From assembly GCA_963924565.1 (NCBI GenBank), contig OZ004611.1, positions 26,598,001-26,662,000 on the forward strand: DNA of 64,000 nt, written 5' to 3'. Made by a program: the position numbers and the translations under genes. The number at the start of each line of letters is the position of its first letter. Within the stretch, counting starts at the first letter, position 1. Positions 75 to 64,000 of this stretch are shown in pieces. The notes beneath the pieces are model-generated. The model was not told the origin of the DNA. It did no database searches and saw nothing but the letters and a program-made list of their open reading frames with translations. Source of the DNA: Ascidiella aspersa (lineage: Eukaryota).

Positions 75-4103
<4,029 letters not shown>

Positions 4104-13200: not shown

Positions 13201-16200
13201 CAATATTTTTTAATACGTTTTCCGATTGTCCGCGACGCACTTGGCAGCCTTCCACGGCGCAACGGTAAAGAAGCGCTGATCTAGTTAAAAAAAAAACAGC
13301 ATCAGAACGTAAATAAAAACGGACGTAGAAAGAACAATCGCGCGAAGCGCAAAAAATTTTCGCATTTATGTAGTTAAAATAGTCAAAAAGTATGAGAAAT
13401 GGACTTGTGTCCAGTTTGTCCAAGAGGCGGCGGGCCGGATGAATTACATTGGCGGGCCGGATCCGGCCAGCGGGCCGTACGTTGCCGACCCCTGGTTTAA
13501 ACTAATGCAAGACATCACCGCAAACGCAGGACTACTGTCATCGTACAATAGGATGGGATATTACGAACTATCACCCAGTTGTGTAGCAATTTACAGACTG
13601 CCTGGTTAACCGTTTGAACTCATAAAATGCCATTCCGACAATACAGTATTGAACTTAAAAAAATACAATTAAAGCTAGAAGGTCTTCGTTGTAAGATTTG
13701 AAAGTGCCTATAAATATCTTATATCGCGATTAAATCATTTTCCGTTATTTAAATCGTCACGAAAAAAGGTATAAGTATAAGTAAGTAACCTGTCCCATTT
13801 TCTACAAAAGATTTCAGTATGGTCGTATAAAGCAAACATTTGTGATTATGAACTTTCCGCTCGTTTTTATTTCCCTAATAACTGGCTTACAAATTTCCCC
13901 TGAATTTTATCCCTCGAATAAGAGAAATAGGGCTTTCATAGATTGTAAGGTTGCTGTTACGTGTTCACTAACACATTAAACACCTAAATTAAATAATTAC
14001 CTTAAGCCAAAGAGTTCGTTTTATTATTAAGTTATATTACGAATTGATAAATAGGGTTTTAGATTACGCGTTCCAGCTTTCGTTTACCAAACATTTTTTT
14101 AAGTTACGATGATGTAATAATTTCCGTTTTATTGTAAAGTAGTTCGTCGATTTATTTGCAAAATTCCCAAGTTTTCTCGTTTCAAACTTGACATGTACCT
14201 GTAATCTCTTAATCTAAAACAGTCATTCTTGCGGGCGGTGTTCTCACGCTCTGCTTGTTTTGCTGGCGTCCCACTCCCGCTGCAATTTGGCCTTGGAGTG
14301 GGCGCTGTAATGCCTAGCCATGTTTTCAGAGTGCCGGCCAGTCTTATTGGCCAAATAGACGTGTAACTTTCTCGTTTTATATACCGTGTCTTAGCGGTTT
14401 TTCGCGCAGTCTAAGCAGTCTGCGCAGCCTTAAGCCAACAGTGGCTGCCATAGGCGGTGACTGGCTGTCTCACGTTTGCTTGAAAACAAATATGCGTTCA
14501 TTAATGCTTTTTGATAACGATTTAATTAACATTGTAACAATAGAATTTTGATTGGTATTTTAGTTGTGGTTATAACAGGTAGCATTTCTGACCAAAAATT
14601 TTCGCAAACCAAATAGAACTCACTCGGTTGCGACCCGCCTGGCAGCTGTATAGGGTTAGGCGCCAGGCCCCAGTACACAAGTCGCGGTGGCGCAACACGT
14701 GTTTGGGGGGAGCAACAGTTGCCATTATGGATGGCCAACCAATACCCTTTTATCGCAGCCGATCCTGTGTATGCGCCCCAGGGTACAAAGGCTCCCGCTG
14801 TCAATTCGTCGATTTCTGTCACGGGGACCCTTGTGGAGAGCACGGCGCGTGTGAGAGTCAAAGCCTGGGCTACGTTTGCAACTGTCGCGGTGGTAAGTAA
14901 GCAGAGGTGAAGAAAACGCGAAGACATTACAAACGACGGAAAGCATATAAGTCTAAAAAGTTGCACAATACCTAACTAACGCAAAGAATTATGTATTTAG
15001 GAACAAAAGTTTGTGTAAGTAACTAGAGTCCCCTTGTAAAGAGTGGAGACCCATCCCAATTTTTATACCCTTAAACTTTTCCGAATTCTGTTATTATTGT
15101 CAGTATTTAGAGAGAAGTGAAAATAAGTGGCTAACAGTCATTTAGGCCTACCGCTTCTTTTATACATCAGAAATTCTAAAAATTCGGAAATTAATTATTG
15201 ATTAGTAATTAGGACCTCACCTGGATCCGAACCCAACCGTTTTGCAAATTTGCTAACAGTCACCTTGACTTATATACATAGGCCTTGGTTAAGTCAGAAG
15301 AATACGAAAATTACTTTTATCCGAGATGGAGTAAGAGTCGTTTTTTACGTTGGGTATTGGGTGCTATTTATTGGAATTGGAAACGCTTTACACTTACAGA
15401 TTCTATTTCTCCATTTCCCTAAACGTTCAGCAGATAAAGTACAGTTAAATATTGATTATTTAAATGCCGGGGATTATTTTACATGCATTTCAAATAGCAC
15501 ACTAATTTTTGCAGATTACGTTGGCAAGCAGTGTAACTTGACTAATCCTTGTCTGGAAACCACATGCTTCAATGGCGGTATTTGTAGAGTGGACTCAACC
15601 ACAGCGAAATGCGACTGTCCGGATTCGTATTCGGGAAGGCATTGCGAGATACAATGCCGACCTACCACTGTAAGTATGAAGGGACTAAGTACGAAACTAG
15701 AATAACACTAACGTCGAATAAAACATAGTTCGGAGTAAGACCGAAAATAAGTTCCCATAATAAATATTAAAAAACAAAATTTAAATTTGAATAAGACCTA
15801 AATGTATCAGAATCAGTTCTACCCACATTTTATCTTAACGACCTACATCTGTACGTGAGCATTATGTTTTTAGACTAATATACTCCGTATTATATACGTA
15901 ACTTAAATGAGAAAAATTAATTTGTGCTGAAACCATGTCAAGGTAACATAATGATTTAGGAAGCTTTTGAATTATACATGATTTCGTTGGATTCGTTCCA
16001 CGTGTGCAACCTGGACAAATTTTTGTAACCGAAATATGTCCGATACTTGACACGATACCGATACCCGATATTTTTGGCAAAAAGTATTGTGTCCGATCGG
16101 ATGCGGAATGACATCATTCCTTTGATAAAACAAGCAAAATTGATAAAATTCAAAAGTTGAGAAGTAATTTTTTTCAGGTTATTAGGCCACCCTTCACTTA

Positions 16201-19200
16201 ATTCTTAAGCGTTTAAAAGTTGAGTTGCCTATTTGATGAAATAATAATAATATTATTATTATTTTTGTTAATTTTGGGATCTAAGCCTGCTCCAACATTG
16301 CTAGTTGTTGATCTCTTCTCCATATCGTAAGATTCAAGCAAAACCACAAAGGTTGTAAAAGAGATCCAAAAACAACTTTATTCAACAAAAGCAGAATACT
16401 ATAGTTACGATGCTTTTTGCGTAACTATAGTATTCTGCTTTTGTTGAATAAAGTCGTTTTTGGATCTCTTTTACAACCTTTGTGGTTTTGCTTGAGTTGC
16501 CTATGTTGTTCATTTTCTATACTTTGATAAATTTAACTTTCAAGGTAGAATAGCTGTTTTTAATCGCAAAAAAAGACTAAAAATCGTCTATTCAGTATCG
16601 GATCGGCTTCTATATCAATGCAGTATCGGCCTGGTACCATACTACCACTGGGAATCGGTTATCGGATCTAATCCGATATTATTGGACATCCTTAAACTTA
16701 GACATAAGTACACCTATGTACTGCAATTGTTCTCCGTTACAAAATTTCCGAAGAAATGTAACGCAATTGCTGGTCTTCAAGTTGCAATTATAATCGCTAA
16801 AATAATGATTTCAAATATTACGAGTCTTTAGAATCGGAAATACTGTGAGCAAGCAAATCATTTTAAACAAACACTGTGTACATTTTGGTGCGAGCCTTCA
16901 AACTGAGCAGCTTCATCAACGAGAATATATTTTCTCCACAGTATTGTTCGTACAGTGGAATAGAATGCTTAGTGCGTTCCAATTTAAGAATTACTTGCCA
17001 ATGCAGCAGCAACGTTCGACGTGGAATGGTTACTTGTGTTATGGAGGATGGTGAGTTGAAAGTTGATTCGTTTCAATTCAAGTCAGTTTGTAATAAAGCA
17101 GTGCCCCGCAACCTGTATGCCGGGAGAACGTGTCAGGTATTCCGGGGTGTTCCGGAGGATTTTAATTGCGTTTTTTCAAGGTACTTTTATTAAGCATAGT
17201 AGAATTAACACGAAAAATGTTACTACAGGGCAAGCTTTATACCTTACACAAAAACAAGGTGTAATTTTATGAGTTTTTCTTCAAAAAAACTATCTTACGT
17301 TCAATCGCCAAAAGTCATGTGTCGAAATATTTTTTTCAACAAAATCAAAAAGCAGGGATTTGAGCGTCAAAAATATTTAACAATAGTTTTCAACCATTAC
17401 ACCAAAGCGGAAAAGGAGACTATCCGTATCAGCACCCATGAAATTCCACTGTAAAATCATTAGCATTTTTGTCCTTAAAATATCGCCTCAGCAATTGTAA
17501 AATTAATTTGGCTGCTGTTTCGAAAACAATACTAAGCAAAAAGTGCAACACACGATAACCAGATTGCATTTTCCAAATGTAAATTTAAACGCTTCAAATG
17601 TCCTCTTATCCACTACAGTAAAAGTACACAAAAAATAAGTTTATTATGGTTGTATTTTGTATTACAATTTAGTGGATTTTTGTTATTTTTTACCTTCGTA
17701 TAGGTTCAAATAAATAATTTTTGGCTGTAGGATGACCTTAGGTACGAACAGTCCTTATATTGTTTTAGTTTGGAAATTATAAGCATAGTACACCAAAATA
17801 AAATATATATATTTATGCATTTATGCTAGGACGACATGACGTTGGCTACATCAAAATCAATTTGAAACAAAAAGAAATGAATTGCTCTTAAAATGTATTT
17901 AGGCACCAGTTTTCCCAATAAATTCAACTTAAAATTTCTCTTGTACACCGAAGGCCATGGCAGATTCAACGAATGTGTCGATAAATGATTGAAGCAACAT
18001 TGAGGTTCGAACTCACGACCTCCTATCATACCGGGACCGTCGCTCTACCAACTGTGCTACACAGGCTCAGAGAGGACGAGTCAAGTAAAACATAAGCCAG
18101 TGCCAATTTCTGTTAGTACAAGCAACTTCACATTGAGGTGGATCTACAGTCCCATATTAATTTTTTTCCTACTATTTTTCTAGAATTGGTAAACGAGTGC
18201 GGAACCCTGAGTAATCCCTGTAATGGTGGAAGTTGCACCGATTTGCAAAAAGGTTTTAAGTGTTCTTGTGGAGGGGGTAGAAGCGGTCCGAGATGTGAAA
18301 TACGAAACCCGTGTTATAGAAATGTAAGTTCCTTTGCATCTGTCTGGTATCGTCCGAAATAACCTATCTAAAGAAGTTAACATTTTATTAAGTTGAACAT
18401 GGTACTGTTACTACTACCCATACTAGGAGACTAAAGCGCAAGATGTCTTTCTAAGAAAATGCCTGCAAGACAATTTGATCGCAACACGCTTTTTGTCTTC
18501 TTTCAGTCGTGCAATGGCCGTGGCACCTGCACTGGAATCAGCAATACGGAGTACCGCTGCACTTGCAACACCGGTTATGAGGGAAAAAACTGTGAACATA
18601 GGAGCCGTGACACATCGTCACCAGGTTTTCGAAAAAAATCAGCTTAATGTTTCTTATCTTTAATTGATATTTTTCACCCAAGCATAAATAAGCTTTACCG
18701 TCCGTTTTATATTGGAAGTAGCTTATCGCCGTATACACCAATTATTATTAGTGTTCATTAGAGCGATTATTTTTTTATTTTTTTGAAAATGTCAATCTTT
18801 ACATGTAAGGTGAAAATTTGTCAAAATCCATTACAAAATAAATTAGAATAGTTTTGAATATTACGAAAAACCATACATTGAGCTTTTTAGAAATTGTAGG
18901 TGAGTAAAATTGTTTTTAGCAACAACATTATAACTGTGTTAAATCTTTATGAGAGCAACATATCGCGTACGCAAGCCGGCAGAATTCACAACGTATAGGC
19001 CTAGTTTATCAACTGTTCAACGATAAATGATTTGTCAACGCTTTTACGAAAGCTGGTCGCTATTTGTTGTCCAAAAATGTTTTACCTGGCTAGTTTGTGT
19101 TACACAGTAACGCTTACAATTACAGGCGCTCCTTGTAAAGTCTATTGTACAATGACCGGCATGAAGGTGACGTGCGAGCCCAGCAAGCTGCCAGCCGTTG

Positions 19201-22200
19201 CTCGTTCCGCGCCGCTTTACGCAAGGATCGCAGAACCACTCTACAACTGTACGTGTACCTTTCCACCAGAAACGAAGCCTTACCGAAACTACGATAATAG
19301 ATACTACCGCCCACGAACAGACGCCAACGGACGCCATTATCGATGGGAAGAAAGACGAAAACAGTGCGTCCTTCCATTCGACGAATGCGGAACTAAGATG
19401 CAGGTTAACGGGACTTGAAATTAGCGTTGTAGGCAGACTTGGACGGCTACATAATTCTAGTTTTATAATTCACTGAATTAGAGCAAAATGCAGCTAATTT
19501 TAATTCTAATCTAAATTGTGAATTGCTGGTGTGCTCTAATTCTAGCTCTAATTTTAATTCTAATCTAATTTAAGAAAGCTGATATAAATCTAGATGTCTA
19601 AGTCTGGTTGTTGTTTGTTCCTGTACTTAACTTCCAAAACTTATAAACTATGATGGCATTCCTAAAAATGATAATGCAATACGACATTGTTAAAAAAACA
19701 ATATTCATAATTCCCGCTAAATAAATAATGTAGCATTCATTACAAATTATTATTAAAGACGAATTGACAAGGAAAGACACTTTCTCAAACCGACTTTGCA
19801 GCCGCCCTGCTTATAAACTGCAGTACAACTCACAGTTCCAATATTACCGATGTATCTAAAAAAGGTTCAAGGTTTTGGGAAATGTGTGTCCAACTTTATT
19901 TCAAATTTAATCATAATGTTACATATATATATGAATTTATTTTCTGACATTTTTATGCGAATGTTAAAACGAATATAAACCATACTGAAGTGATTTCTAC
20001 ATTAGTTAAATATTTGTATATCGGACAACAAAAATGTTCTGTTTACTAACATTCAAATTTTAAAGGCTGTGTAAAGTTATAAATTAAAAGGAGTTTAGAG
20101 TTAAAAGTTTGAGCAGACGCGGTATAAGGAATTATTACAATGCGATTAAAAAAGGCTATTACTTTTGGACAGGTTGAAAGTGGAGAAATCGTTTACCACA
20201 ACATCTTGTCGTTGTACGAATTCGCATTGAAGCAACGTACACCGGAAGCATGGGAACAAGATATCCTCATTACAAGAAAGCGAGCAAAATTTGAGGTATA
20301 GAGACCGGTTGAACTTATTGTTGAGTAAAAATTATACCTCTATTTCCAACCTTTGTTGCCTGATTAAAAATTAGACTAAAGACTAAAATTAGGATAGCTA
20401 AATATCAATTGTGTGACCCATTGTTATTTAGACATACGTAACAGTTCGTCAGATTTAAATGACATCTTAATATGTATAAAGTTGTACGTTTTAATTGCAG
20501 ATTATAGTTACGACATCAAAAGGGAAAGCACATTTTTACTTTCATTGATGGTTATTTGTTTATTCCACTTAAAATAAAGTGTTTTTATATACCAAAGATC
20601 CAAGTGCAATGCAATGTTCCCACCAATTTAAAGAGCATTTGGAAAGCAATCGACAGCAAGGATTTGGATCCAACTGACAACTACGAAATAGTGGCAAACT
20701 CTTCAACAGGAAATAACTCTCTTACAATAAGCTATTATAGGTAATGCAACATGTGTTCAAAGTCAAGTGTATAAGCAACCACATGGAATGTAAACAGCAT
20801 ACTATTTGCTGTGGTACGGAACTGACGATAATACGAGATGTGTGCGTTTAACACGAGGGCAAACACCTTGACTCTTTTTATCAGGTTGAATGCAATTAAC
20901 AACACTCTGCAGCCGATAACAAATTTTCTCATTGGAGGAAGAATCTATGTACTGGTGAGTTTTAAGTTTGGTTTCCGCGTCAATGCCTTTAAAAAACGAA
21001 CCTTGTTAGTGCCCTAATATTTTTCACAAAATAATATCGCAATTCGCAGAAACTAATGATTTTTTAAATCTCCCACTCCAAAAAAGTAACAACAGACGAA
21101 GTTCAGAAGTTGAATTTTTTAGGTTCGACTGTCCTTGGAATACAACGAAAACGCCGATTTGAAGGGACAAGAACTTACACTCAGAAACTGCTACGCGACA
21201 GCATCTATGGACAAACAGCACGAGCCGCTGTATTACCTGCTTGAAAATGGGTAAAAGGAAGACTTTACTGTGCTTCAATGCGACACGAAATCAATTTATT
21301 TTAAAAATTGAGTCGGGCGGTTTACTACAAAACATTTAACAGAAAATAGTTATTTCATTATTAAAATAACCTACTTTTAAAAAAATATAAAACTTTGGGG
21401 ATGAATTACAAAAGACACCCTTATATAATTATGTATATTCAAACATTTAATGTGTTCTAATGTTAATAATAATACCCGTGGTATTATGGATTGCTACTGG
21501 TTTGATGCTGTGAAGACTCTAAAGCATATATAAACCAAGCAATTGTGTAGTCAATTTATTATTACAAATATATAATTCAACGTTGACCCAATGGAACATG
21601 TTTTTTCTTGTTTCAGTTGCGTGAAAGACCAAACATTTAGATATGAGAACGACTTGCTACAGGAACAAAACAGCTATACATTCACTGATTTTTATTTTAA
21701 GACTTTGATCAGTTTCGAAGCATTTAGGTTTAAAGACGACTTATCAAAGGTATCACAATTTCATTTACAGCGAAATTATGTTTTATTTAATTGTGTTTAG
21801 TAAACTATGTAATGCTAAGGGTATAGCATTGGTCCTCCCCTTGTGGTAAAAAAAATTGGGAAAGTCACAGGTGTTTAATATTTACCGCAATCGGTTATGA
21901 ATGTTAGTATCGGTTATAGACGATAAAAGTGCCTCAATGTTAACCGCGTCGTGTGTGGCATCGTTGGCGAGGTTTAAGCAAGCGCTACACGAATTTTTTG
22001 GGTCCCAAATGTTTTTTTCCGTTAAATTTTGTGTGCTGGGTATCTTCTGCTAACCCTATTGAGGAGGGGGGAGTCGCATGGAGTTAATTTATGGCGTTAG
22101 TTGATTGCGATAGAATATTAACTTCTTATTACGGTATTGTTTTACTTTAATTAGAAATTTAGCATAATTACACTTACAACAATTAAGTAAATCGAACTTT

Positions 22201-23036
22201 ACTTTTTATTTAAACAAAATGGCCAAGTGACGCGGATGTAAACCTTGAATATTTTTGTGTAATACACAAAAGGGGATTGCGATAGGCTTAAAAGAATCAA
22301 ACTAAGTCGCAAGAACGAAAAGGTTGTTGGGAACAGCTGCCGCTTAGCATAACTGTATCGTACGAAACAAATCTGGACGTTGAATGTTGCTTCAAAATCA
22401 TTTGAACTGAGGGTAGAACAATAAGCGAGAATCAAGTAGAATTTATACCAAATGTTCAGCTTAAAAATTGACCAAAACAGACAAGGGATATTAATGTAAA
22501 AGGAAAGCAGTCTCATCGTTTATCATGTAATATCTTGAAAGTAAAAATATATCGTCCAGAAATTTACACACATTCGCAAAAGCAATGTAACTTTATTTTT
22601 TTAATATTAATGTAAGGCGATGGCAAGTCTTTATTTCAGGTGCGCCGAATCAAAAACACCACACTAGAACCGGTGATAGAAAAACGAACGAGAAAAATTG
22701 GAGAAAGGCAAACATAACGCTTTGATAAATCCTGGTCGGTGTAGTGTTGCTTAACATATTTATATATATATGTTCAACCTGAAGGTAGTCCGAAAGAAAT
22801 GGATTTCAAACGCAGTTTTTATTTTTTCCGATATTTAGGTGTTTATTCAAGCCGAAGCGGACATATGTTCTAAGACTTCGAACTGTAACTCATGTAATAG
22901 CGCTGAATCCCCTCAAAGAAAGAAGAGAAACGTGATGCTTGGATCGCAAAAGCCTCATGTTGGGAGTTCACAGTTTAACACCCAAGCAGATGAAGGAGTG
23001 GGAGTACTGGGCTCTATTCAATGGAATGATATTTAG
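10268..23036 (+). CDS. EGF-ZP gene A: secreted protein with signal peptide, 6 EGF-like repeats and ZP module (about 648 aa)
   Basis: 14 phase-compatible exons: 10268-10328, 10723-10879, 14759-14892, 15515-15669, 16942-17050, 18184-18323, 18507-18624, 19126-19403, 20173-20295, 20598-20740, 20885-20954, 21123-21250, 21617-21749, 22839-23036. Signal peptide MAGYLHLTVLAIFTFLAVCDG; six 6-Cys EGF repeats; ZP hallmarks ECGT, IVYHN, ITR, LRNCYAT, YYLLENGC, FEAFRF; furin site RKKR; hydrophobic-patch-like VGVLGSIQW. Confidence 0.88.
11311..12008. mobile_element. Degenerate hAT-type MITE in gene A intron 2
   Basis: Left end cagaagtgtccaaaacctgtgggtgcgacccc, right end ggggtcgcc...aaaaaggttggaggccactg. 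TSD not clear. Confidence 0.5.
12745..13494. mobile_element. Non-autonomous hAT (Charlie/Buster-like) element, 750 bp
   Basis: TIRs caggggtcggcaac / gttgccgacccctg; gtttaaac on both flanks (left copy offset by cat). A second family member lies inverted at 25369-26122. Confidence 0.85.
16334..16495. repeat. Near-perfect fold-back palindrome (76-bp arms, 10-nt loop) in gene A intron 4
   Basis: 16334-16409 is the reverse complement of 16420-16495 with one mismatch. Confidence 0.95.
17870..18066 (-). mobile_element. tRNA-derived SINE (head 18001-18066; 3' extent uncertain)
   Basis: Minus strand reads gcctgtgTAGCACAGTTGGtagagcg...gtgaGTTCGAACCtca, giving Pol III A and B boxes. There is no 3' acceptor-stem strand, so it is not a tRNA. 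Confidence 0.65.
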
Positions 23037-23875
23037 TGATAATAATCCCACACAACTGTATTCATAGCTATCAAAAACCAATGGCACGCAATCAGAATCA
23101 TCAACGAAATGCATCCTTACGATTTACACTGGGTTTTTGCCTTTTTTAACAACTTTCCCCAAGTACAAAGTTTACGAGAAAAGGAATACCAACTTCATAA
23201 ATTAACGTGCTGCGCTGTTTTATGTCATTATCATAATTGATATATTTTTTGTTTATTCTGTGTTAGCAACACGAATTTCCATGGCATATTAAAAAAGCTA
23301 CATTATGAAACATTCCGAGAAGGACATAAAATGATCTTCAGCATTGCTTGATCTTATTGATATTTCATTGTCTTCATATATCGTAAACAAACACATATGC
23401 CCCTTCCTTATCGAAATGCCACAATTATAATTCAAGCAGTTGACAATTTTCTTATTCATAACCACTGCTGTCCAATACAAACATTTTTTGTACATTTAAT
23501 TTGTGTGTATTACATCTTTTATTTACTTATTGTCAATAAAAAAAGTCATCAACAAATTAATGGTGTTTTTTGACAATGATAAAAGCGCTTTCTGAAAACT
23601 GACCGAGGCCGGCAAAAATAATATTTCACCAACTGTAACAACATTTTAAACTCTAAACAAACACAGTTTGTTGGAAGTTGGATATTATATAAACAATTGC
23701 CTTCCTAAAGAATCGTCGCTTTTTATACACATAATATTAAACACGCGCGTAGAATAACAACATCTTCATTTGGTAACATTGCAGTCACAAATTTTCATGG
23801 GTTATTTCGACAACATAAAATGTTAAGATCTAATGAATGATTTGCCTTTGATTCTGACTGATGTAGTTTTACGTT

Positions 23876-41507: not shown

Positions 41508-44500
41508 ATGACAGGTTGTATGATTTTAATAGTGTTTGCAGTGTTTTCTGTTTCAGCGTTTTACGACGGTAAGTTTCTGGTAGCCAAATTTTATAATTGC
41601 TTTGGAAATTTAATAATAGATTGTATTATTTGCATTTAAGCAGTGTTCAATGAAGTCAATGACTTTTTTCATGAGCCATTAAATCACTGTTTAAAATGAA
41701 CTGACTTCAGTTTTTCGGACAAAAAACACTTTTTTTGTTTGTTTTTTTGTTGTTAAGATTTTGTTAACTCCTTTTGGTGAAATTGCTTAATATCCCCAAT
41801 TTCGGACTGTAAAACAGTTTGCCCCTTATATGTTACGCTTTGTGGTTTAATAAAATTTGTTCAGAATCGGTTGTATTTTGATATCAACGACTTGGCTGAC
41901 TAGGATAGTGGCTTGAACTAGAAAATGACTAAATATTTTTTGCAATTAACTTGACTTGAACCTTTGTTCATTTTTTTAAAAATAATTTTAAAATGAATTT
42001 TTACAGCGCTGGTTTGAAGATGAGCTTGTTGGTGTCCAAATAATATTAGGATATTTTTGCCAGTAGTTCTCAATATGGGGTTCGTTGTTCTTGATTTTTA
42101 GGCGTAGGCCTACTTTGAAGTTTGCTAGTTGAGTTTTATAAAACAAATTATTATTGGACTGCTGCAGGGTAATCTTATTTTGATTGGACTGGTAATATTA
42201 TTTTGTTTTAGTTTGTTAGTTATTATATTAACACATTGTTTGGTTTCAACTAATAATTGTTAGCTTGTCAGCTTTGAAAAAAGGTAAACCATCGTTTAAT
42301 CAATTGTTTACATAAACACAGAAATCAATTTTTCCCACATTTTTTGAACAGGAGTTCGCGGATTGAATTTGACAGAAGCAGTTGCTTCAACTACCAACAC
42401 CAGTCTTTCAAAGCCCAACGCAACTCAGAAACCACCACAGCATGACGCTTGCTACTATTTCAATCCCTGTTTAAACCAAGGGAAATGCATTTCAGAAAAC
42501 TCGGTCAGGTATGTGGTCGGGAACAAATTTAACTTTTACAGTATTTATTGCAAAAGTGTACAAAAATAACAGTTTTTTTTTAAAAGGGCTCCAAGTCTAA
42601 AACGTTTGTTCTATTCTCCCGGAATATGTTTTGCACATAGGTGTAACAAAGATAGCGAACATAAATCAGATTTTACCCGAAAAAAACTCAAGTTGTGGTT
42701 TTTAACTTCTAATTAAATCCAATCAAATACCAAAAACACCTACGCTTTTGTCCGGAAGTTAAGCCTAATCCATACAAACCAATAATTGTAACATTTTATC
42801 TTGCTACCGTATAATTTCAGTAATAAGGCGATGTTATCCTTCTTGGTAATCAAACCTAAAAAAATGTAGGCCTACATGTAGGTAAAATGACTTCTGCGTT
42901 TTCATTTTTAGAAATTTAAAATATAACGAAACCAATGAAAAATTTCTTTACCCAATGTAAATTCTAGTTTAATTTTAAGAAATGCGACAATACTATAACA
43001 AGCCTCAGTTTGAAAGCAAACCATCTAAAAACTTTACTTTCGCAAAACGGAAGTAAAGAATGGCGTGACAAAAACAAAAGTTTGTTGACAATTCAACAAG
43101 TTCGCCTTTGAGATTTTGATTCTGAAATAATTTTTTTTATAAGATGTCAGGTTGTGTGTACATATAGTAAACGCATCTGCGCACCAGCGAAGCTTTGGCG
43201 AAACAATTCTGTTCACTTAACCTTTTGTAGGCTTTACGTGAACAAAACACAAAAAAGGAACAAGCATTAAAGGCACGGTGGCTTTTAACAGACAAACCGG
43301 ATCAGTAGAACAATTCTTAAGTAAGCTAGACTAGAAGAACAATAGCCTGCGATAAGGTTTGACTTACGAACTGGGCCATTCCAGGACGGCCGACCTACTG
43401 AGCTATACAGGCTCATACGGGAACAGTTCGAAAACAATCGTTACACCATTGCTTGCATTCTATTAGTTCAAAAAAAAATTCAATTTTGGGGAACTACAGT
43501 TCCAAGTGTACGTATGTGTATGAACATTTCATTAGCCTTTTCGAATTTAGGTTATATCGAAATAAAAAACCTTTTAGTTAGAGGCTTTTGCGAATATCGG
43601 ATGGAAGCCGATACTCGATGCCAAGCGCTAGTATCGGTACTCGTTATTATACCAGGGTGGTTTAAGTGACGACTGGAGGGAGAACTCTTTGACTAAATCA
43701 AATTTGAAAAACTACCTTTGCAAGTTTCTACTTTATATATTTTGCTTCGTTGTTGATAGTAATGACGTAATTTGGACCCAGAACCCGAAAATTGTTGTCT
43801 CAAACATCAGCTATTGGTCTCGAAATAAAATATCAAGTCGAACATCCCTGAACTAACAAGCAAATCAATTCAACCTACAATAACCAACCGATCTCATTTT
43901 ATCTCAGCCGTTTACGCGACCTGGTGTATATCTTAGGTCATTTTATAATAAGTTTGCAAATCTATTCTGAATTCTAGCCTTCGAATACGGCTATCATAGA
44001 TTGTAAGGTAGCCATTGTGGAACGTACAATAGCTAACCAATACCCTTTTAACGCAGCCGCTCCTGTGCATGCGCCCCAGGGTACAAGGGCTCCCGCTGTC
44101 AATTCGTCGATTTCTGTCACGGGAAGTCTTGTGGAGAGCACGGCGATTGTGTGAGTCAGAGCATGGGCTACATTTGCAACTGTAGCGGCGGTGAGTTTCG
44201 CTTTTGGGGCGTTTTTTTCACTTTGAATAAGGAAAATACATTTTAATAAACGAAACTAAGTTTGCGCGGCTTTCTTATGTAGTTATTTAGGAACACTGTG
44301 GGTGACTGACTATAATTTTAGGTGCTATAAAAAAGTAATATAAGGGTAACTATGGGCGCTAAATAAAGCTTTAATATTTTTTCCAAACCTTTTGAATGTG
44401 ACAAGTGTGTTTTGAGAAACCAATTATAAGGCAAATACCATTACGCTACCAAAATACCTTAAACTCATTTTTTTAACTTTAGCAGCAATTTTATGTATCG

Positions 44501-47500
44501 AATGTACTTTCAACGATATACGAAATTTAAAGATTTTTAACCGACAACTTATCTTATACCAACCGATCTTTAAAATCAGTCAATGGACATATAACTTGAT
44601 CCACAAGCACAAATTAGTTTTTTTTCCCAGAGCAGAAAAAATACTCGTATCCGATATTTAAGGGAGAGAACTAATTAAGCTTTGTACGGTACGTTTGGCT
44701 TAGAGAGCTAATTTACATATTTTAGCTATATATATTATTATGTGGTGCCTGTTGTAAGTTTCTCAAAGCATTTCAGTTAATAGTTTAGGGAAATTCGGGT
44801 ATTCTCCCTATAATCTGTAAACAACTATGTAGAGTGTAAAACAATAGTACGTTTCAAAAACACGATTATTTTTGCAGATTATGTCGGCAAGCATTGTGAG
44901 GTGGTCAACCCTTGTCTGGTAACTAAATGTCTCAATGGAGGTATTTGTAAGGTTGACTCGAACAAGGCGAAATGTGAATGCTCCCATCCGTATGCGGGAA
45001 AGCAATGCGAGACACAATGCCGGCCTACCATTGTAAGTATCGTCTTGTGAATAGGTATACTACTATTAAGGTATCAAGCTGGCAGGTTTTTTTGAGCTGG
45101 GCAGCTGGGGTATGCGAAGGTTTAGCAAAGGGGGCCGAAACACTAAAAACGAGGAAAAATATTCACTTATTTAATATCAAATTAGACAGATATTTTTAGC
45201 TACGTTTTACCGTGACAGACACACATTATTTTATTCTGATCACCTAATCTGTTTTTCTCAACGATATTAATCTTGTTTTTGCATTTTTCAGTTACAGTAG
45301 CCTGAAATGTGAATTTTACAATTTAAAGCGCCTCTTTGCACTGTTTGCGCGATGTTTCTATTCATATCATTGCGCCTACTAAACATATTATCCGGAGGGG
45401 GTGGGTTTCGATAAGTTGTGACGAGGGTGAAAAACTGAAACAAAACTAAAAACCTCTCCGCCTTTACATACTTCACTTTTTGTCTTTGTTTAAACATAAT
45501 TACGACAGGGCAGAATAAATATATACTTTTTCGTCTTCAGAGATGTTACTACACTGGCGGAACACTATGCGTTTTGCGTTCTAATTTAACAATTAAGAAT
45601 TGTGAATGCACGTACGACGTTCCACGTGGAAACTTCACGTGTGTAATGGAAGATGGTGAGTTAAAAGACTGTTAACGTTGCAATCACTCGAAAAAACAAC
45701 AAATAAATGCTGAATATTTCGATATAAACTGCAACGATAGTAGGTCGCTATTTGTTTTACAGAGTGATTTGTGTTGGGCCTATAATTAATTGTTTGAAAA
45801 TCAGGCCTTATGTTAATTATATTTAAAAAAATTAAGTTTGAGTTAGATTGCTGATAGTAGATTGTTTTACAGGCACAGGACGTGTATGATTACACAGTTT
45901 AAAATATAAAGATGCACAAATTTAAACAAATAATTGGGCCTATGATTAATTGTTGAAAATCAGGCCTAATGCTAATTATATTTAAAAAAATTATGTTTAA
46001 GTTAGATTGTTTTACAGGCACAGGCGTCATATATACATGCACAAATTTAAACAAAATATTCTTATATTTTACAACAAGACGATGGGCTTCACAGGAAACA
46101 ATTATTGAAAAGCACTGGCTATTAGCTTGTTTTTCAAAATAATTGTCCAGCAGTGCGTTTGGGTGTTGATGAGTGGTGTCCTGGTATAAACTCATCGATT
46201 TTAAAGAATCTTTGTAAATGTCCGTGTTGGTCTAATTCTAAATAAGGCAATCAGGTGGCCCTTTATACTAAAACAATGTTTAAAAGTTTTTCTACTTTGA
46301 CCTGATGAAGCACGGTTGTGCGAAAGCTTGTCGAGAATTTAAACAATTTGTCTTCATATAGTGCCACCTGGTTACCCTGTGTTTCGGTTTTCATCATTGG
46401 TTTTAATATGTTTTTAATTTGTTTTTAATAGAACTGGAAAACGAATGCAAAACCTTAGGGAATCCGTGTAACGGAGGAACCTGCATCGATTTGCGAAAAG
46501 GATTCAAGTGTAGTTGTTATGGCTCAAGAAGTGGTCCCAGATGCGAGATACACAACCCATGTCTTGGATTAAGACCTGTACTTAAATTAATGAAATAAAA
46601 ACCTATTGTAGGACAAGAACTGTCTATCAAAATAGAACACACAATTGGATCAATAAACCAGATTTACTGTAATTAAATGGAATAGGGCTGATGTCTTTGT
46701 TTTGTTATTTGTTTTGTTATTGAAGTTTGTCGTTGAATTGGGTTTAGAATTAGGTTGGACGTTGTTTAAATTGTATTGTGGTGCTTGAGGTGTTATTCTG
46801 ACAGGTATAGATCTTTCCGACATATACTTGTCAGTGTATTTTAAGCCCTATTCTGGAAGTGGTTTTATTTCGACATTGCCGTGAGTAGTTTCAAAGGTAT
46901 AAAAGGCCATGAGTGTGAAACAAACGATGAGCAACCAACTAAGTTGAGAGATTTAGTGTACGCGATAAAAACGATTAACATGCCGACGGCATATAAGTTT
47001 GTCGCTTAACGTCGTTCATCTTTTTTTAGGCGTGCAGTAATCATGGCACTTGCAGTAGAGTCAGCAACCACGAGTACCGCTGCACTTGCAATTTCGGTTA
47101 CGACGGCAAAGACTGTCAATACAGGAATAATGACACCACTGGAGCAGGTTTTCCGAAAACGCATTTGTTTTAATGTGTAGACAAAATTTAATTAACTGAA
47201 AAGTGCATGTTTCAGGATTTAACCAGGGGTGGTCCTAGGTTTTTGTTTTGGAGGGAAATTAAAATTTTCAGAGATGACGACACAGCGTACGTCAGTGGTC
47301 GCCAAACTTTATTGTTGCGGCCCAAAATACTTTTTCCAGGCTATTAAAGTTCCACTAGAAAAAGAGGGGAGAATCCAGGATTATTTGGGGGGTTGGGATG
47401 CACGTTTTTAGAAAATCGTCACAAAGTTATGTCATAATAAAATTTACCTTTAAACCACCAGCTGACTTGAGCAAACTCGTGCGCAAATATGCAGCTGAAG

Positions 47501-50500
47501 CAGACTACAATCTTTTGTATTTTCATACTAAAAATTGGCTAAAATTATAGTTTAGAGCAGTGCTCCGCAACCGTCGTGCCGCGACGTTCCCGGTGGTGTT
47601 TTCTTGCGAGTTTGCTGGTGTTTTCTTGCGTTTTTTGCGGTGGTTTCCTGCGTTTGTTATTGTAGTTTTGGCAGTATAATTAAACAAAAATGGTATATTA
47701 AGGTTCTAACCGTAATCAAGGTGTAGGCCAAACTTAGAAACTTTCCTTAATTTGAAACTAAATCCTATGTTATGTCAATCGCCGGAAGTCGAATTTGAAA
47801 GCATTTTTTTAACTCACTCAACTAACAGGAGTATAAATATATAGCAATTGTTTTCTAGTCACAATAGAAAAATATCTAAAATCGTCAACCTAAACATGTC
47901 AAAATTTTTTCATGGGAAATTAGGCCTATAAATGGACATTCATGGAAATTGGGCCTATAAATGAATAAAGTAGCCTAAAAATGTAATAGGGGGCTATTGG
48001 ATGATCAGGGTTTATCAATCTGGAATTGGATGTTTTGGTATCGACGTTTTGGCGCTGTAATTTTTAAGGGGTTATGGGGTCGTTGGCGCGCCGCTGTTTA
48101 ACGGGTATCCGTATCCGCTTTGTCGAGAATTTAAACAATTTGTCTTCATATAGTGCCACCTGGTTACCCTATGTTTCGTTTTTCATCATTGGTTTTATAT
48201 GTTTTTAATTTGTTTTTAATAGAACTGGAAAACGAATGCGAAACCTTAGGGAATCCGTGTAACGGAGGAACCTGCATCGATTTGCGAAAAGGATTCAAGT
48301 GTCGTTGTTATGGCTCAAGAAGTGGTTCCAGATGCGAAATACACAACCCATGTCTTGGATTAAGACCTGTACTTAAATTAATGAAATAAAAACCTATTGT
48401 AGGACAAGAACTGTGTATCAAAATAGAACACACAATTGGATCAATAAACCAGATTTACTGTAATTAAATGGAATAGGGCTGACGTCTTTGTTTTGTTATT
48501 TGTTTTGTTATTGAAGTTTGTCGTTGAATTGGGTTTAGAATTAGGTTGGACGTTGTTTAAATTGTATTGTGGTGCTTGAGGTGTTATTCTGACAGGTATA
48601 GATCTTTCCGACATATACTTGTCAGTGTATTTTAAGCCCTATTCTGGAAGTAGTTTTATTTCGACATTGCCGTGAGTAGTTTCAAAGGTATAAAAGGCCA
48701 TGAGTGTGAAACGAACGATGAGCAACCAACTAAGTTGAGAGATTTAGTGTACGCGATAAAAACGATCAACAGGCCGACGGCATATAAGTTTGTCGTTTAA
48801 CGTCATTCGTCTTTTTTTAGGCGTGCAGTAATCATGGAACTTGCAGTAGCGTCAGCAACCACGAGTACCGCTGCACTTGCAACTTCGGTTACGACGGAAA
48901 AGACTGTCAATACAGGAATAATGACACCACTACAGCAGGTTTTCCGAAAACGCATTTGTGTGTAGACAAAATTTAATTAACTGAAAAGTGCATGTTTCAG
49001 GATTTAACCAGGGGTGGTCCTAGGTTTTTGTTTTGGAGGGAAATTAAAATTTTCAGAGATGACGACACAGCGTACGTCAGTGGTCGGCAACTTTATTGTT
49101 GAGGCCCAAAATACTTCTTCCAGGCTATTAAAGTTCCACTAGAAAAAGAGGGGAGAATCCAGGATTATTTGGGGGGTTGGGATGCAAGTTTTTAGAAAAT
49201 CGTCACAAAGTTATGTCATAATAAAATTTACCTTTAAACCACCAGCTGACTTGAGCAAACTCGTGCGCAAATATGCAGCTGAAGCAGACTATAATCTTTT
49301 GTATTTTCATACTAAAAATTGGCTAAAATTATAGTTTAGAGCAGTGCTCCGCAACGGGCGTGCCGCGACGTTTCCGGTGGTTTCCTGCGTTTGTTATTGT
49401 AGTTTTGGCAGTACAATTAAATAAAAATGGTATATTAAGGTTCTAACCGTAATCAAGGTGTAGGCCAAACTTAGAAACTTTCCTTAATTTGAAACTAAAT
49501 CCTATGTTATGTCAATCGCCGGAAGTCGAATTTGAAAGCATTTTTTTAACTCACTCAACTAACAGAGTATAAATATATAGCAATTGTTTTCTAGTCACAA
49601 TAGAAAAATATCTAAAATCGTCAACCTAAACATGTCGAAATTTTTTCATGGGAAATTAGGCCTATAAATGGACATTCATGGAAATTGGGCCTATAAATGA
49701 ATAAAGTAGCCTAAAAATGTAATAGGGGGCTATTGGATGATCAGGGTTTATCAATCTGGCATTGGATGTTTTGGTATCGACGTTTTGGCGCTGTAATTTT
49801 TAAGGGGTTATGGCGTCGTTGGCGCGCCGCTGTTTAACGGGTCGTTTTCCCTGTTTGGGGTTAATGGTGAATAGCTTAATGCTTGGGGTTAGAAAATAAG
49901 TTAGGGTTGGAATTATTAGAAAGTTAGTGATGAATTTAAGGGTGGGGTTTGAGGTTAGGTAAAATGTTATATAGGCCTTGTTCTAGACGTTTAGGTCTTA
50001 TTCAGATCGGTTTAGAACAGCGGTTCTTAACCTATGGGTAATTACCCACATGTAGGTAATTTTCAGGATAGCAGGTGGGTAATCAGCTGAACCTGAATAT
50101 CTAGAATTATGGTTGTAACAAACAATGTCACAGCTGTTAGTGATAAGTTGCTTTATTACTTACACTTTTTTGATGTTTTGAGTGCTTTTAATTTTTAAAA
50201 CAACCAAACTAGAACAAGGATATTTCATCATTTTATCATTGTTTCGTCATAGTGATTATTTTTGTGACCGGTATTACGTATTTTATTTTTATATTACGTA
50301 ACAGTATGATTTTTCTTGTATCCGCTTACGGCTAGCCTAGCTATTTTTTCATTATCAGTTTGCTGTTGGTGTTTATTTTTGAAGGTATTCTTAGTGGAAT
50401 TGTTTGGAGTAGTATACGATAGCTATAAGTGTGCGTTTCCAGTTACGAGCGAGCTATAATTTGTTTAATTACGCTGTTTTAAATTTTTAGTACTTGGTGG

Positions 50501-53500
50501 AATAGCAAAATGGGTAAAATTAGATTTTGGGTAATGGGTAATGGGATCTGAACAGAAAAGGGTAATAAGGAAAAAGGTTAAGAAACCCTGGTTTAGAACG
50601 TATTGTGATTTAGACGTTATTACGACTATGAAGTATTAGTCCTATTTTGGTCTTATTCCGAAATGTGTTTTATTTTGACGTTGATTTAATTTCGGTCTTA
50701 TGGCTGAAGTCCCTTTAGTCGTCTTAAGATATTTTAGGAAGATCGTGAAATAAAAAGATAAGATAGCGTAAAACGTCTAATTGTTGGCGCCTTCGACAAT
50801 TTTAATCATAAATCGCTCATTTTTCTCTTAGGTAGACTAGGATATTTGCATACGTGGTTTATTGTCGATGGACATATATTTCGTAGCAGTGCCGCCGAAT
50901 TTTTTAGCACTGTCGTTGTGCTGCAAGTTAAAAAGGTGCCCAGCACTGGTTTAGAAGGGCCATTGTCTTTGAGACCCTGTCACTGCAGGCTAGTTTTTTC
51001 TAACCTGCCTTGCTTTAATTTTCACAGACTGTTGATATTTTCTACAGCTTACCGCTCACATTTTCAGGTCCTCCTTGCAGAGCGTTTTGTACCTCGACCG
51101 GCATGCGGGTGACATGTTATGCAGGCAAGCTACCAACCGTTGTGCGTTCCGCGACGCTTCACGCAAGGATTGCAGAACCGCGCTCCAATTGCACGTGCAC
51201 CTTTCCACCGGAGATCGAGAGCTACCGGGTTCGCGCATCAAGGTATTCCTCGGATAGTCGATGGGATAGCTCTTGGGGCTACTACCGATTGAAGAAAACA
51301 GAAAAACAATGTGTCCTGCCGTTTAGTGAATGCGGAACAAAGATGCAGGTATGATCAACGAAGCGTTATCGAATATAACAAAAAATACAGCTATGTTCAT
51401 TTTCTCTTTCTCTCTTCTATTCTTTTTCTCATTTTTGTCTCTTTTTTACTTTATCGCTCTTCTCTTTCTCTCTCTCTTTCTCTTTTATCCGTTTGGTCAG
51501 CCAATATGAGTTTGATGACCTTCCTTTTTACATGATATTAAATCACCTTATAGTTTGTACTTGTTACTGGATGATTTACCTTTACAAAAATATTTAACAA
51601 CGACAGGTCAAAAGTGGAGAAATCGTTTACCACAATGTCTTGTCATTGCACGAATTCGCATTGAAGCAACGTACACCGGACACATGGGAGCAAGATAGCC
51701 TTATAACAAGAAAGCGACCAAAATTTGAGGTAGGAGTCTGGGAATTTATGTAGATTCAAGCAAAAGAGGTAATTGTGGATGCTAACCTTGTTTATATATT
51801 TAATTCGTGATCCGCGTTACGATTTCATAAATTGACCCGCCATTCCTATATGTTCCACGCCCCTGATTTAAATGACACTTTGTGGATAATGCTACACTCG
51901 GTGAGTTTCATATTTGAGTGACCGGCCATCATTCAAATTCTTGCAATAGTATTTTTTTCGTTTCAAGACCGGTAGGCCTATAAAGTGTATACTGCTTTCG
52001 AATGTACGAATTTTGACACCTAAGATAATATTTTATGTGATTTAAATTCGTGTTGACTGTTTTGAATGATACCAAAGATCCAAGTGGAGTGCAAAGTTCT
52101 TACTCATCTGAAAAGTTGGTGGAATCAAATTGACAGCAAGGATATGGAGACAACAAACAACACAGAGATATTTGCCAATTCTTCAGTTGGAAACTTTTCA
52201 ATGGTCACCAAATATTTCAGGTAAAGTAATAAACGTTTAATAAGCGCAAAAAACCTCAGCTGCGTTATATCCTTTTCGCTTATCAAATGATGTTATCACA
52301 ACTGGAGGCTATCGAGGTTACTGTAATTAACCAAATGAATAACGATGATTATGCTACCTGATTCCAATAATAGTAATTTGTTAATGTCTAGCAGCAAACC
52401 TTAAGCATGCGCAAAGTGTTTATTGTAGCTTACTTAAACGTATGCTTTCTAATGTTTTTGGTATATTTTTTATGTGTTTACAGAAGTATGTTCATTTAAA
52501 ATTTACTGTGAGTTAAATTCGCTGTAAAAAGTAAATTGAACCTATACTAATATTTTGTAAGTGCTGTGCTGTTGACTGCTTCGGATGTAGGCTACATGTA
52601 GAAAAACTTAAAATACATTTAAAAAAAAATAGATTTGCAGAATAAACCGAAAATTTTCAAAGGTCATAAAATATTTCAGGTAAAGTAGTAAGCTTTTAAG
52701 ATCATGTGCAAAGAAAACCTAAGCGAAAGCTGTCTGTACATCATTTGCTTATCGAATGATGATATCATAATTGGAGGCTATCGAGGTTACTGTAATTAAC
52801 TTTGTAATGAATAACGTTGATCATGTTTGCCAGGTTGAATTCGACAAGTAAAATCCTGCAGCCGATAACAGATTTCCTTATTGGCGAAAGAATCTATGTG
52901 CTGGTAAGTTTTTTAAACAGGTGTTGTGTTTTTTATTTTGTAAACGATCACAAAATATTACAAAACTCCCCAAAAAAAAATTATGAACGAGTCCCTTGTT
53001 AAAGGACAAGTTACTTTGAAAATTAAATTTTCATATTTCTTGTAACAACCCCAAAAAACTAACCATTGGCTGTCTATTTAGTAATGGTAAAAGTATTTGT
53101 AGATGAACTCTGGTTGCGCGCAAATAATTTTGATCATTTATTTTGTTTAAAAACTCTTTTACTGTATTAAAGAATTCCCAAAATGCAAAACCAATATGGA
53201 GTATAGTTACTTTTTAAAAACAGCCTGGTTACAACGTTTGTATTCAAACCAAAAAAGATTGATCTTCCTCGCAATATTACCTTTAACAAAACGAGCCCAC
53301 GTAAAGCCTTAAAATTTGGACAACTATTCAATTACAATTCGCGAACACTTGAACACCTCCTAATCAAAAACGGCAAAAATCAACTAACCTAAGTAATTTT
53401 TTAATGAACCCTAAAAGTATTAAATTTTTGGGTTAAGAAATACATGGCCGGCCTGTTTTTTTTAGGTGCGAATGTCGTCTGATTACAACAAAAACGCTGA

Positions 53501-54573
53501 GCTAAAGGGACAAGAGCTTACACTCAGGAACTGCTACGCGACAGCATCTAAGAACAAACAGCACAAGCCGCTGTATTATTTGCTCGAAAATGGGTAAATC
53601 GAAAACCAGGCCCAACCACGAGCCAACAGCTTTTAGACTAATAAAATACGAAAACTTTCAGATTAAAAAAATCGGACGGTTTTCTAACAACGTTTGAACA
53701 TGAAATAATTATTTGTTGCTGATAATAGCGTAAAAAAATTATGAAACTTGTTTTAAACGTTAAAATAAATGTACACTTGCAAAATGCCATATTTAATAAA
53801 ACATTTTATAGTTTTTATTTGTCACAATAAACATGAGATTATAAATTGCTCTTGTCTCCGATTTGTGAATAATTGTTTTAATTCCAATTTACCGTTTTTA
53901 ATTCAAACTCATTAATAAAAGGTAATTTATACAAAATATATAATTCAACGTTGACCCAATGGAACTTTTTTTTTTTCAGATGCGTGAAAGACCAAACATT
54001 TAGATATGAGAACGACTTGCTACAGGAACAAAACAACTCGACATTCACTGATTTTGATTTTAAGACTTTGATCAGTTTCGAAGCATTTAGGTTTAAAGAC
54101 GACTTATCAAAGGTACAATATCACAAATTCCGTGTAACCTAAAGTATAATAGAAATGTGCTTATTTTCTATAAATGCACTTTTAAGAGATACATAGCATA
54201 TAATATCGCACAGTAGTATAATATAATACAGATATAAATTTAATGTTGTGTTAAAAGCTTTTAAACCATAATAGATTTATTTGGGTCTCAATCAAGACTT
54301 TCTGCTGAAAAATAAACCGAAGGGTCAATAAAGGTACCATGTGAAAAAAAGATTTTAAACGCAATTTTTCTTTTTGGCGATATTTAGGTCTATATTCGGG
54401 TCGAAGCCGACATATGTTACAAGACTTCGAACTGTAATTCCTGCAATGATGCTAAAGGCTCAGCAAGAAACAGAAGAAATGTTGAGCTTGGGCTTAAAAA
54501 GCCTTATGCTGGTGGTTCACATTTTAATGCCGAAGTTAATGAAGGAATTGGAGTTGTGGGTTTGATTCAATAA
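41508..54573 (+). CDS. EGF-ZP gene C: signal peptide, 8 EGF-like repeats (exons 6-7 duplicated) and ZP module (about 737 aa)
   Basis: Exons 41508-41568, 42352-42508, 44057-44190, 44878-45032, 45541-45655, 46432-46577, 47030-47147, 48223-48368, 48821-48938, 51068-51348, 51607-51729, 52078-52220, 52834-52903, 53466-53593, 53980-54112, 54388-54573. Open throughout; furin site RNRR. Confidence 0.85.
46326..49842 (+). repeat. Intragenic tandem duplication of about 1.75 kb carrying exons 6-7 of gene C
   Basis: 46326-48106 is repeated at 48117-49842, with junction filler atccgtatcc at 48107-48116. Confidence 0.92.
50018..50590. mobile_element. hAT-type MITE (573 bp) present in gene C only
   Basis: TIRs cagcggttcttaacct / aggttaagaaaccctg; perfect TSD gtttagaa (50010-50017 and 50591-50598). 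Confidence 0.85.
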
Positions 54574-56192: not shown

Positions 56193-56470
56193 TATGCCGG
56201 TGGTTCACAGTTTAACGCATAAGTTAAAGAAGGAATGGGAGTGTTGGTTCAATTCAGTGGAATAGTATCCAGTAAAACTAATCCGGCACTATTGTCACAG
56301 CTTATAATCACAAGGTTTCAATAATATCGAAATCAAAAACAAAATTATTTTTTAAGCTTTGATTACCAGCGCTTGTGTTTCAAAACAATCCTTTAGTGTT
56401 TTTTCAACAATTTGTTTCTAAAACTTACGAAAACATAAACGAATACTGTTTATTATTACAATTGACGTGC
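56193..56470 (+). pseudogene. Fragment of the last exon and 3' UTR of a further EGF-ZP copy
   Basis: Translates YAGGSQFNA*VKEGMGVL..QWNSIQ* with an in-frame stop and a frameshift, followed by 3' UTR-like agtaaaactaatcc as in genes B and C. Confidence 0.75.
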
Positions 56471-63459: not shown

Positions 63460-64000
63460 GTGGGTAGGGATGCATCTTACCTGTACACACACATTTCTGT
63501 AGCTATTCTATTCGTCTCTATAGCTCATTGATTCCACAGTACTTAAGCCTATGTAATGACAATATGCCAGCAATTTAAGATCAATACCAGTATACTCAAC
63601 TGTTACACATAAGTGTTACACAACTGTAATCTTGCCCTTCTGAAGTTGCTATTTGGCCAACGATGTCGATGTTTTGCACTTTATTGCGATAACCGATCTT
63701 TTAGCAAAAACTAACTTATATTTGCTGAAAGTGCTGTGCATAGGAACGCAACCGATGGCTAAAATATGTCAAGTTAGCTTGGTAGGGGATACACACGTGT
63801 CGTACGCTCCTGTAGTATCTGGCGAACAGCATCAGTGAAAATATATAATAACTTTGGCCTTTCAATCCACTCTTTTCGTTAAAGATTACAATACAGTTTA
63901 CAACCATCGACAAATAAAATAAAACGACGCTCAATTTGCGAAAATCAAATGGTATACTTGGGCACACTATTGCACGGATCTGTAATGTAGCTTGATAATA

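Follow-up and report, generated by a model that had tools for sequence, protein, structure and literature searches.

A tandem in-frame duplication of an EGF exon pair in one of three clustered EGF-ZP genes of the ascidian Ascidiella aspersa

A stretch of 64,000 nucleotides from Ascidiella aspersa (assembly GCA_963924565.1, contig OZ004611.1, positions 26,598,001 to 26,662,000) was analyzed with a focus on a duplicated exon pair in a gene that is called gene C in the following. The whole stretch is referred to as the window, and all coordinates are counted from its first letter. Self-comparison of the 64 kb revealed three tandem paralogues, A, B and C, which are all encoded on the plus strand, and the exon models of all three have GT-AG introns and open frames. 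Gene C is one of three tandem ascidian genes that encode EGF modules together with a ZP module. The only true relative found was a protein of Phallusia mammillata (CAB3244027.1, with the automatic name "eyes shut-like"), which is called P0001 here. The genes are the following:

41508..54573, plus strand: gene C, 16-exon model, 737 amino acids, open frame with GT-AG introns, alignment with Phallusia P0001
26814..38631, plus strand: paralogue B, 647 amino acids, one exon 6-7 pair at 32828-32973 and 33440-33557
10268..23039, plus strand: paralogue A, 649 amino acids, one exon 6-7 pair

According to the translations, the shared layout opens with a hydrophobic stretch. Six Cys-rich EGF-like modules follow, of which five are regular and one is atypical, and then come a ZP module and the basic cleavage site. 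The model of gene C has a signal-peptide-like start, eight EGF-like modules, a ZP module and a basic furin-like site, and it lacks a transmembrane tail. When the genome was searched with the first of the ZP exons, four candidates were scored, and matches were obtained at only three places, namely A, B and C.

A blastn self-comparison showed that a segment with exons 6 and 7 is present twice in gene C, in head-to-tail orientation:

46328..48106, plus strand: copy 1 (C1) of the tandem duplication, 1779 bp, by blastn self-comparison
48120..49842, plus strand: copy 2 (C2) of the tandem duplication, 1723 bp, by blastn self-comparison
46432..46577, plus strand: exon 6 of copy 1, phase 1-0, 146 nt, EGF5 and the first Cys of EGF6
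47030..47147, plus strand: exon 7 of copy 1, phase 0-1, 118 nt, the rest of EGF6
48223..48368, plus strand: exon 6 of copy 2, phase 1-0, 146 nt
48821..48938, plus strand: exon 7 of copy 2, phase 0-1, 118 nt

The two copies are 94.9% identical when gaps are counted (blastn). In the 1704 columns that could be aligned with B they differ by 34 substitutions, or 2.0%, and in addition by five indel runs of 1, 6, 1, 47 and 1 nt, and B differs from both copies at 83 columns. The duplication had been noticed by a first-pass annotation, which described a tandem copy of a phase-1/phase-1 exon pair (146 + 118 nt) that adds two EGF domains with intact splice sites. The blastn comparison, the exon phases and the Pfam results all agreed with this description, and the five amino-acid differences between the copies that it had named (CKT/CET, CSC/CRC, GPR/GSR, CSR/CSS and TTG/TTT) were all correct. 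The duplicated span was also found, with the correction that it starts at 46328 and not at 46326.

A symmetric phase-1 exon-module duplication involves a unit that lies between phase-1 introns, has a length that is a multiple of three, and keeps its splice sites intact. The exon 6-7 unit has these properties: it comprises 264 coding nucleotides, a multiple of three, it is entered and left in phase 1, and all four exons are bordered by AG and GT. Only the pair constitutes a module, because a phase-0 intron splits EGF6. The donors of exons 6 and 7 are identical in B, C1 and C2, the acceptors are nearly so, and all four duplicated exons scored above the cut-off for the Pfam EGF family PF00008. 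The frame stays open through both pairs, resulting in 737 amino acids in C versus 647-649 in B and A, and the new intron between exon 7 of copy 1 and exon 6 of copy 2 is an ordinary one of 1075 nt. Judged from the sequence, the duplication would raise the number of EGF modules from six to eight in the protein. The first-pass annotation had suggested that the pairs could be included together or skipped alternatively; it had missed a third in-frame form with six EGF modules, in which the first copy of exon 6 is joined to the second copy of exon 7 (46577>48821). A, B and P0001 have one exon 6-7 pair each, and P0001 aligns to A and B as one stretch and to C as two overlapping stretches. Therefore, the doubled state in C is derived. 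The duplication was observed correctly; it is young and in-frame, and it is most likely real.

The surroundings of the breakpoints and the junction contain the following features (the repeats are given without strand):

46287..46380: high-copy repeat arm of about 90 bp with the left breakpoint, matched by 8 of 8 fetched loci, in 5 of the 8 as a long inverted pair
48107..48119, plus strand: junction filler of 13 nt, ATCCGTATCCGCT, with an internal 6-nt repeat
49709..50012: old dispersed repeat with the right breakpoint, 72-82% identical to other copies, far end unmapped
50022..50592: hAT-like miniature inverted-repeat transposable element (MITE) with an 8-bp target duplication, in which 50318-50327 is the candidate filler template

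The B equivalent of the repeat arm at the left breakpoint had a very high read depth, and 37 of the 40 listed matches of the right repeat lie outside the A-B-C cluster. One breakpoint had been assigned to a transposon relic before; a repeat is indeed present, but both breakpoints and not one are located in repeats, and these belong to two different families. Homologous recombination between repeats was ruled out, because the families differ and there is no long homology.

The 13 letters of the filler fit neither side of the junction, and together with the preceding GT they form the sequence gtatcc-gtatcc, as had been reported. The 10-mer GTATCCGCTT, which consists of nine filler letters and the first letter of C2, occurs at two places in the 64 kb (0.03 expected), at the junction and at 50318, which is 476 bp beyond the right breakpoint and inside the MITE. 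Shuffled fillers matched equally well in 71 of 3000 cases within 500 bp and in 136 of 3000 cases within 1000 bp of a breakpoint (p about 0.02-0.05); a control with 2000 bp was discarded because that window includes the junction. In B, at 34672-34685, both halves of the MITE target duplication are kept, each one letter short, and the element is absent (compare C at 50014-50600). This resembles an excision footprint, and thus the MITE template is probably older than the duplication.

The absence of breakpoint homology and the filler with its probable local template support the earlier proposal of non-homologous or template-switch repair. Formation of tandem duplications by extension of one end on a donor, followed by end-joining, has been described (PMC7368036). 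With moderate confidence, extension and end-joining with a short templated filler would be the simplest reading of the junction. A break near 46328 might have been followed by extension of the left end by about 1.78 kb on a donor, and a GT match could then have let the extended end switch to the MITE at 50318. Two rounds of copying on the MITE are proposed, which would explain the gtatcc-gtatcc sequence, before end-joining in the style of polymerase theta linked this end with the original right one.

Sequencing runs were used to characterize the locus further. Reads and contigs of the runs X1, X2, X5 and X6 were aligned to paralogue B only, and X3, X4 and X7-X10 were left out. X6 is an RNA run, and X1 and X2 entered as contigs. 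From the alignment to B, 15 of 221 joints and 24 of 1660 loose ends were listed, together with 40 of 566 letter rows and 16 of 9329 pieces. The B letter at 32941 was replaced in 20 of 20 X5 reads, in 56 of 56 X6 reads and in the contigs of X1 and X2, and therefore the assembled animal does not seem to be the source of any of the four runs. The copy number was estimated from the read depth in X5 and not from contig depth in X1 and X2. The depth was 18.8 over five repeat-poor bins of the segment (five of the twelve inside it), 11.5 over eight flanking bins that B and C have in common, and 6.8 over two bins specific for B. These values reject an equal copy number (p 0.004; 0.04 with counts halved), and they fit ratios of 1.25 or 1.5.

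The reads of the RNA run were strand-specific on the exons, and the C-type letters in exon 7 were present in 60 of 60, 56 of 56 and 42 of 42 reads. The depth was about 50-55 on exons 6-7 versus about 4, near background, on the B-type exon 5 (32056-32164), which together with the C-type letters indicates that the C-type gene is transcribed. On the downstream exons the depth was 26-50 (exon 8) and 84-91 (exons 9-10), so that a doubling on exons 6-7 is neither shown nor excluded. As to the low depth on the B-type exon 5, B might be expressed weakly there, or the B gene of that animal might have diverged.

The first-pass annotation had taken the differences between the copies as changes that arose after the duplication: one allele would have been copied, and the copies would since have diverged, perhaps under selection for a new EGF specificity. 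This is improbable. The differences are more frequent in the exons than in the introns (10/264 versus 24/1440, p 0.03), and relative to B-specific sites the excess in the exons is 4.5-fold (p 0.007), which speaks for this view. However, pN, the nonsynonymous difference between C1 and C2, is 0.029 and thus lower than the synonymous value pS of 0.076. Positive selection on the differences is therefore unsupported, and the low pN is easier to reconcile with old allelic blocks than with selection acting on new changes. The differences are also clustered, with 11 of them in 170 columns around exon 7 (reached by 85 of 5000 permutations), as would be the case for a block from an older allele or for a conversion tract. 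Of the private changes, 21 are found in C1 and 12 in C2, an asymmetry that is not significant (p 0.16).

In addition, copy-2 letters were found outside of the duplicated context in X1, X2 and X6. A contig of X1 with a length of 373 nt has the copy-2 letters of exon 6. It starts 14 nt upstream of the breakpoint, and it differs from B at 7 positions in total, while the filler alone would add 13. Therefore, it appears to represent a copy-2-type exon 6 behind a normal, unduplicated flank, with the proviso that contigs from short words may join alleles and cannot prove absence. A contig of X2 has the GSR letter on a B-like background. In X6 all 56 reads at B32943 have the copy-2 letter; at B32932, 11 nt away, it is found in 34 of 58 reads, and this 59:41 split in exon 6 is equally compatible with two alleles and with two copies. 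No copy-1-type allele standing singly was seen among the listed rows of X1, X2, X5 and X6 on B. The coding letters differ among these four runs and the assembly (40 of 566 letter rows, in which alleles and paralogues are unphased). Of the words sampled from 44001-54000, a fraction of 0.68 is present in X1 and one of 0.43 in X2. This implies a divergence of other animals of 1.2-4.4% at the locus, a rough estimate that repeats and dropped variants have displaced. With 2.0%, the difference between C1 and C2 is inside this range and is thus at the level of alleles. The differences are probably not newly arisen, and the former view of them as divergence after the duplication is not supported in the form given. 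Instead, most of them may be standing allelic variation, which could have been caught from the homologue at the origin of the duplication or could have been introduced later by gene conversion. It is doubtful, yet of interest, whether the duplication is still segregating and has stacked two pre-existing alleles of a polymorphic EGF pair in one putative egg-coat protein.

The interpretation that we regard as reasonably probable is that gene C contains a young, head-to-tail, frame-symmetric duplication of an exon pair, which likely originated by extension, copying and subsequent joining and which would be spliced into an eight-EGF form of a likely secreted egg-coat protein. Both exon pairs would normally be included in the mRNA; this is proposed because each of them has retained the splice sites that function where only one pair is present. 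Through its ZP module the protein would polymerise and form an extracellular coat, with an EGF arm extended by two modules. Several observations weigh against this interpretation. The putative template match is modest, and the 500-bp window was picked after the match had been seen; within 250 bp of a breakpoint there was no filler match above chance, and among the best 12 of 47 listed matches to other copies of the MITE the exact 10-mer was present in none and a 9-mer in four. Neither the duplication junction nor the splice from exon 7 to exon 6 was present among the 15 of 221 joints and 24 of 1660 loose ends listed, which came from repeats and did not include ordinary splice joints either. 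The excess in X5 depth depends on bins picked by hand, and the X5 letters do not fit the assembled copies: T was present at B32960 in 4 of 19 reads, while both copies have T. Therefore, the extra depth may stem from another variant or from noise. A doubling of the RNA depth on exons 6-7 is not seen against all of the exons downstream, and none of the 56 X6 RNA reads has the copy-1 letter at B32943.

Two other explanations were considered. The duplication might be real, but act as a splicing switch or be dead weight, so that most transcripts use one pair and encode six-EGF proteins. The skips 45655>48223 and 47147>51068 and the hybrid 46577>48821 are all in frame, the donor of exon 6 is weak (CCT/gtactt versus AAT/gtaagt in A), and the lack of a clear doubling and the missing copy-1 letter at one site in the RNA would be in accord with it. 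On the other hand, the donors and acceptors of the two copies hardly differ from each other or from those of B, and the length of the new intron is ordinary. The X6 animal differs from both B and C at three listed sites of exon 8 and represents another haplotype; therefore the missing copy-1 letter says little, and we consider the use of only one pair rather unlikely. Still less credit is given to an assembly artefact, in which two alleles of one segment were written in succession, and which is very improbable. The copies do differ at the level of alleles, the junction was unseen in the listed rows of the four runs, none of which appears to stem from the assembled animal, and the X1 contig crosses the breakpoint without the junction. 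Nevertheless, unrelated sequences that are joined by a 13-nt filler with a plausible local template would hardly be invented by an assembler. The window is devoid of N and is located inside a 33.9-Mb contig, a search of 75 contigs (308.6 Mb) did not retrieve a second contig with the segment, and the X5 depth is compatible with three loci.

B and C are most alike from exon 8 onward, with an identity of 96-100%, as against 93-97% for exons 6-7 and 77-96% for exons 1-5, indicating that sequence exchange between paralogues is active in the cluster. In a comparison of B (26814-38631) with C (41508-54573) conversion or unequal crossing-over seems to have homogenised the 3' half with the ZP module, and the EGF arm is distinct. 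Exon 13 of A (21617-21749) is 96-97% identical to B and C, with values of 67-85% for the neighboring exons, and exon 3 of A (14759-14892) is nearer to C (89.6%) than to B (82.1%). Both exons are likely to contain short conversion tracts among all three genes.

Further features of the cluster and its flanks were noted. The exon after the 123-nt ZP exon has an AAG acceptor with a poor pyrimidine tract in all three genes (52078 in C, 36171 in B and 20598 in A). An older repeat with a spacing of about 460 bp (52190-52353 and 52649-52825 in C, 36283-36448 and 36743-36920 in B) has copied the end of a ZP exon and its donor into the next intron. An orphan piece at 56193-56292, which is 81-83% similar to the end of the last exon and the 3' region of B and C, is possibly a relic of a fourth copy. 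Downstream of the cluster two Cys-rich open frames are present, one at 59422-59952 (177 amino acids), which has no Pfam match, and one at 63154-63528 (125 amino acids), which by eye is LDL-receptor-A-like. Upstream of gene A, at 3387-4100, there is a frame of 238 amino acids rich in Ser, Pro and Gln, which probably is an exon of a regulatory protein.

The first approximately 17 residues of A, B and C are hydrophobic, as judged by eye. In the translations the basic site after ZP-C reads RNRR in C, RNKR in B, and RKKR in A and P0001, and the models of A, B and C stop about 30 residues past this site, without a C-terminal transmembrane anchor. One exon of gene C matched the ZP-C family PF00100 with an E-value of 0.0013 and 19.2 bits, below the cut-off of 24.6. 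P0001 matched PF00100 with an E-value of 8e-16 and aligns with C across the ZP-C region, and a ZP-C module was counted as present in gene C. The Pfam search found no match for the exon 51070-51348 and no ZP-N match in P0001; the Atlas neighbors of residues 300-631 of P0001 are ZP-N/ZP-C clusters at 0.91. Like A, B and C, P0001 has six Cys-rich modules, ZP-C and a basic cleavage site in the same order, and it is 40% identical to A over 577 columns and 36% identical to B. Unlike C, it has one equivalent of the exon 6-7 pair. Two of the three protein hits that included P0001, namely P0002 and P0003, were rejected as relatives, because the domain check showed them to be unrelated. A protein search with exon 6 found nothing (one candidate). 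A search with P0001 yielded 183 hits, generic EGF proteins, and P0001 was the only one of the 120 listed with PF00100. A search with the ZP region of P0001 found only P0001 itself among 644 candidates, with lengths of 347-1105 amino acids only.

Tandem EGF modules before a ZP module, as in gene C, are a common feature of the ascidian vitelline-coat EGF-ZP proteins (VC70/VC80/VLP/VC57). A transmembrane anchor is common, but not universal, in ZP-module proteins. In amphioxus it is absent from four of five egg-coat ZP proteins (PMC3543715). Gene C is built like the vitelline-coat proteins, which on sequence grounds makes it a candidate coat protein. Literature searches did not turn up a description of this gene cluster. 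Many EGF-ZP proteins are present in ascidian vitelline coats, with 12 EGF modules in HrVC120, 5 in HrVLP-1, 1 in HrVLP-2 and 24 in CiVC57 (PMC9265791). Such proteins are typical of urochordate coats, and they also arise in other lineages (PMC11673550, PMC3543715). HrVLP-1, with five EGF modules and a ZP module, and CiVC57 have EGF repeats and a ZP module as does gene C, next to a signal peptide, which in gene C is putative, and HrVLP-1 is closest in size (PMC9265791). CiVC57 (vWF, 24 EGF, ZP, transmembrane tail) has a vWF module and a transmembrane tail that are both absent from the models of A, B and C (PMC9265791). Both were compared with gene C by description.

Over the range of 1 to 24 EGF modules in the coat proteins, one gain by duplication has been inferred between two species: the eighth EGF module of HaVC80 is doubled in comparison with HrVC70 (13 versus 12 modules; PMC9265791). 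A change of the EGF number by duplication is thus already known in this class, and the process in gene C is not new. HaVC80, HrVC70 and HrVC120 of Halocynthia are, like gene C, ascidian EGF-ZP proteins; in HaVC80, as in gene C, an internal duplication has raised the number of EGF modules, and the EGF region of these coat proteins is polymorphic between individuals (PMC9265791). The gain in HaVC80 concerns one module, lies between species, and affects a tested sperm receptor (PMC9265791). In contrast, gene C, known from sequence, gained two modules (from six to eight) with a visible junction in a cluster of three genes, and the gain is possibly still polymorphic. Because the junction and a likely template are preserved next to two paralogues with a single pair, the locus is a clean worked example of EGF gain. 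It would be of wider importance only if the animal makes the eight-EGF form and if this form segregates and has an effect on fertilisation.

The junction can be compared with tandem duplications of the polymerase-theta type, which like the one in C are head-to-tail, at least 1 kb long and devoid of long homology, and which occasionally carry a templated insertion (PMC7368036). They were described in repair-deficient C. elegans with templates in the immediate vicinity (PMC7368036), whereas the candidate template in C is 476 bp away. If two alleles are stacked in a duplication that still segregates, carriers would show both EGF variants on each molecule, with the repair scar still readable. In that case a candidate gamete-recognition protein would contain a heterogeneous duplication of intragenic kind, and one could test directly whether sperm preference depends on the number of EGF modules or on their sequence. 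A parallel would then be the heterogeneous duplication of ace-1 in Anopheles, in which two alleles stand in tandem on one chromosome (PMC5137868). That duplication involves whole genes in a 203-kb amplicon and has measured fitness effects (PMC5137868), whereas in gene C it would be an intragenic exon pair, with both variants in one polypeptide.

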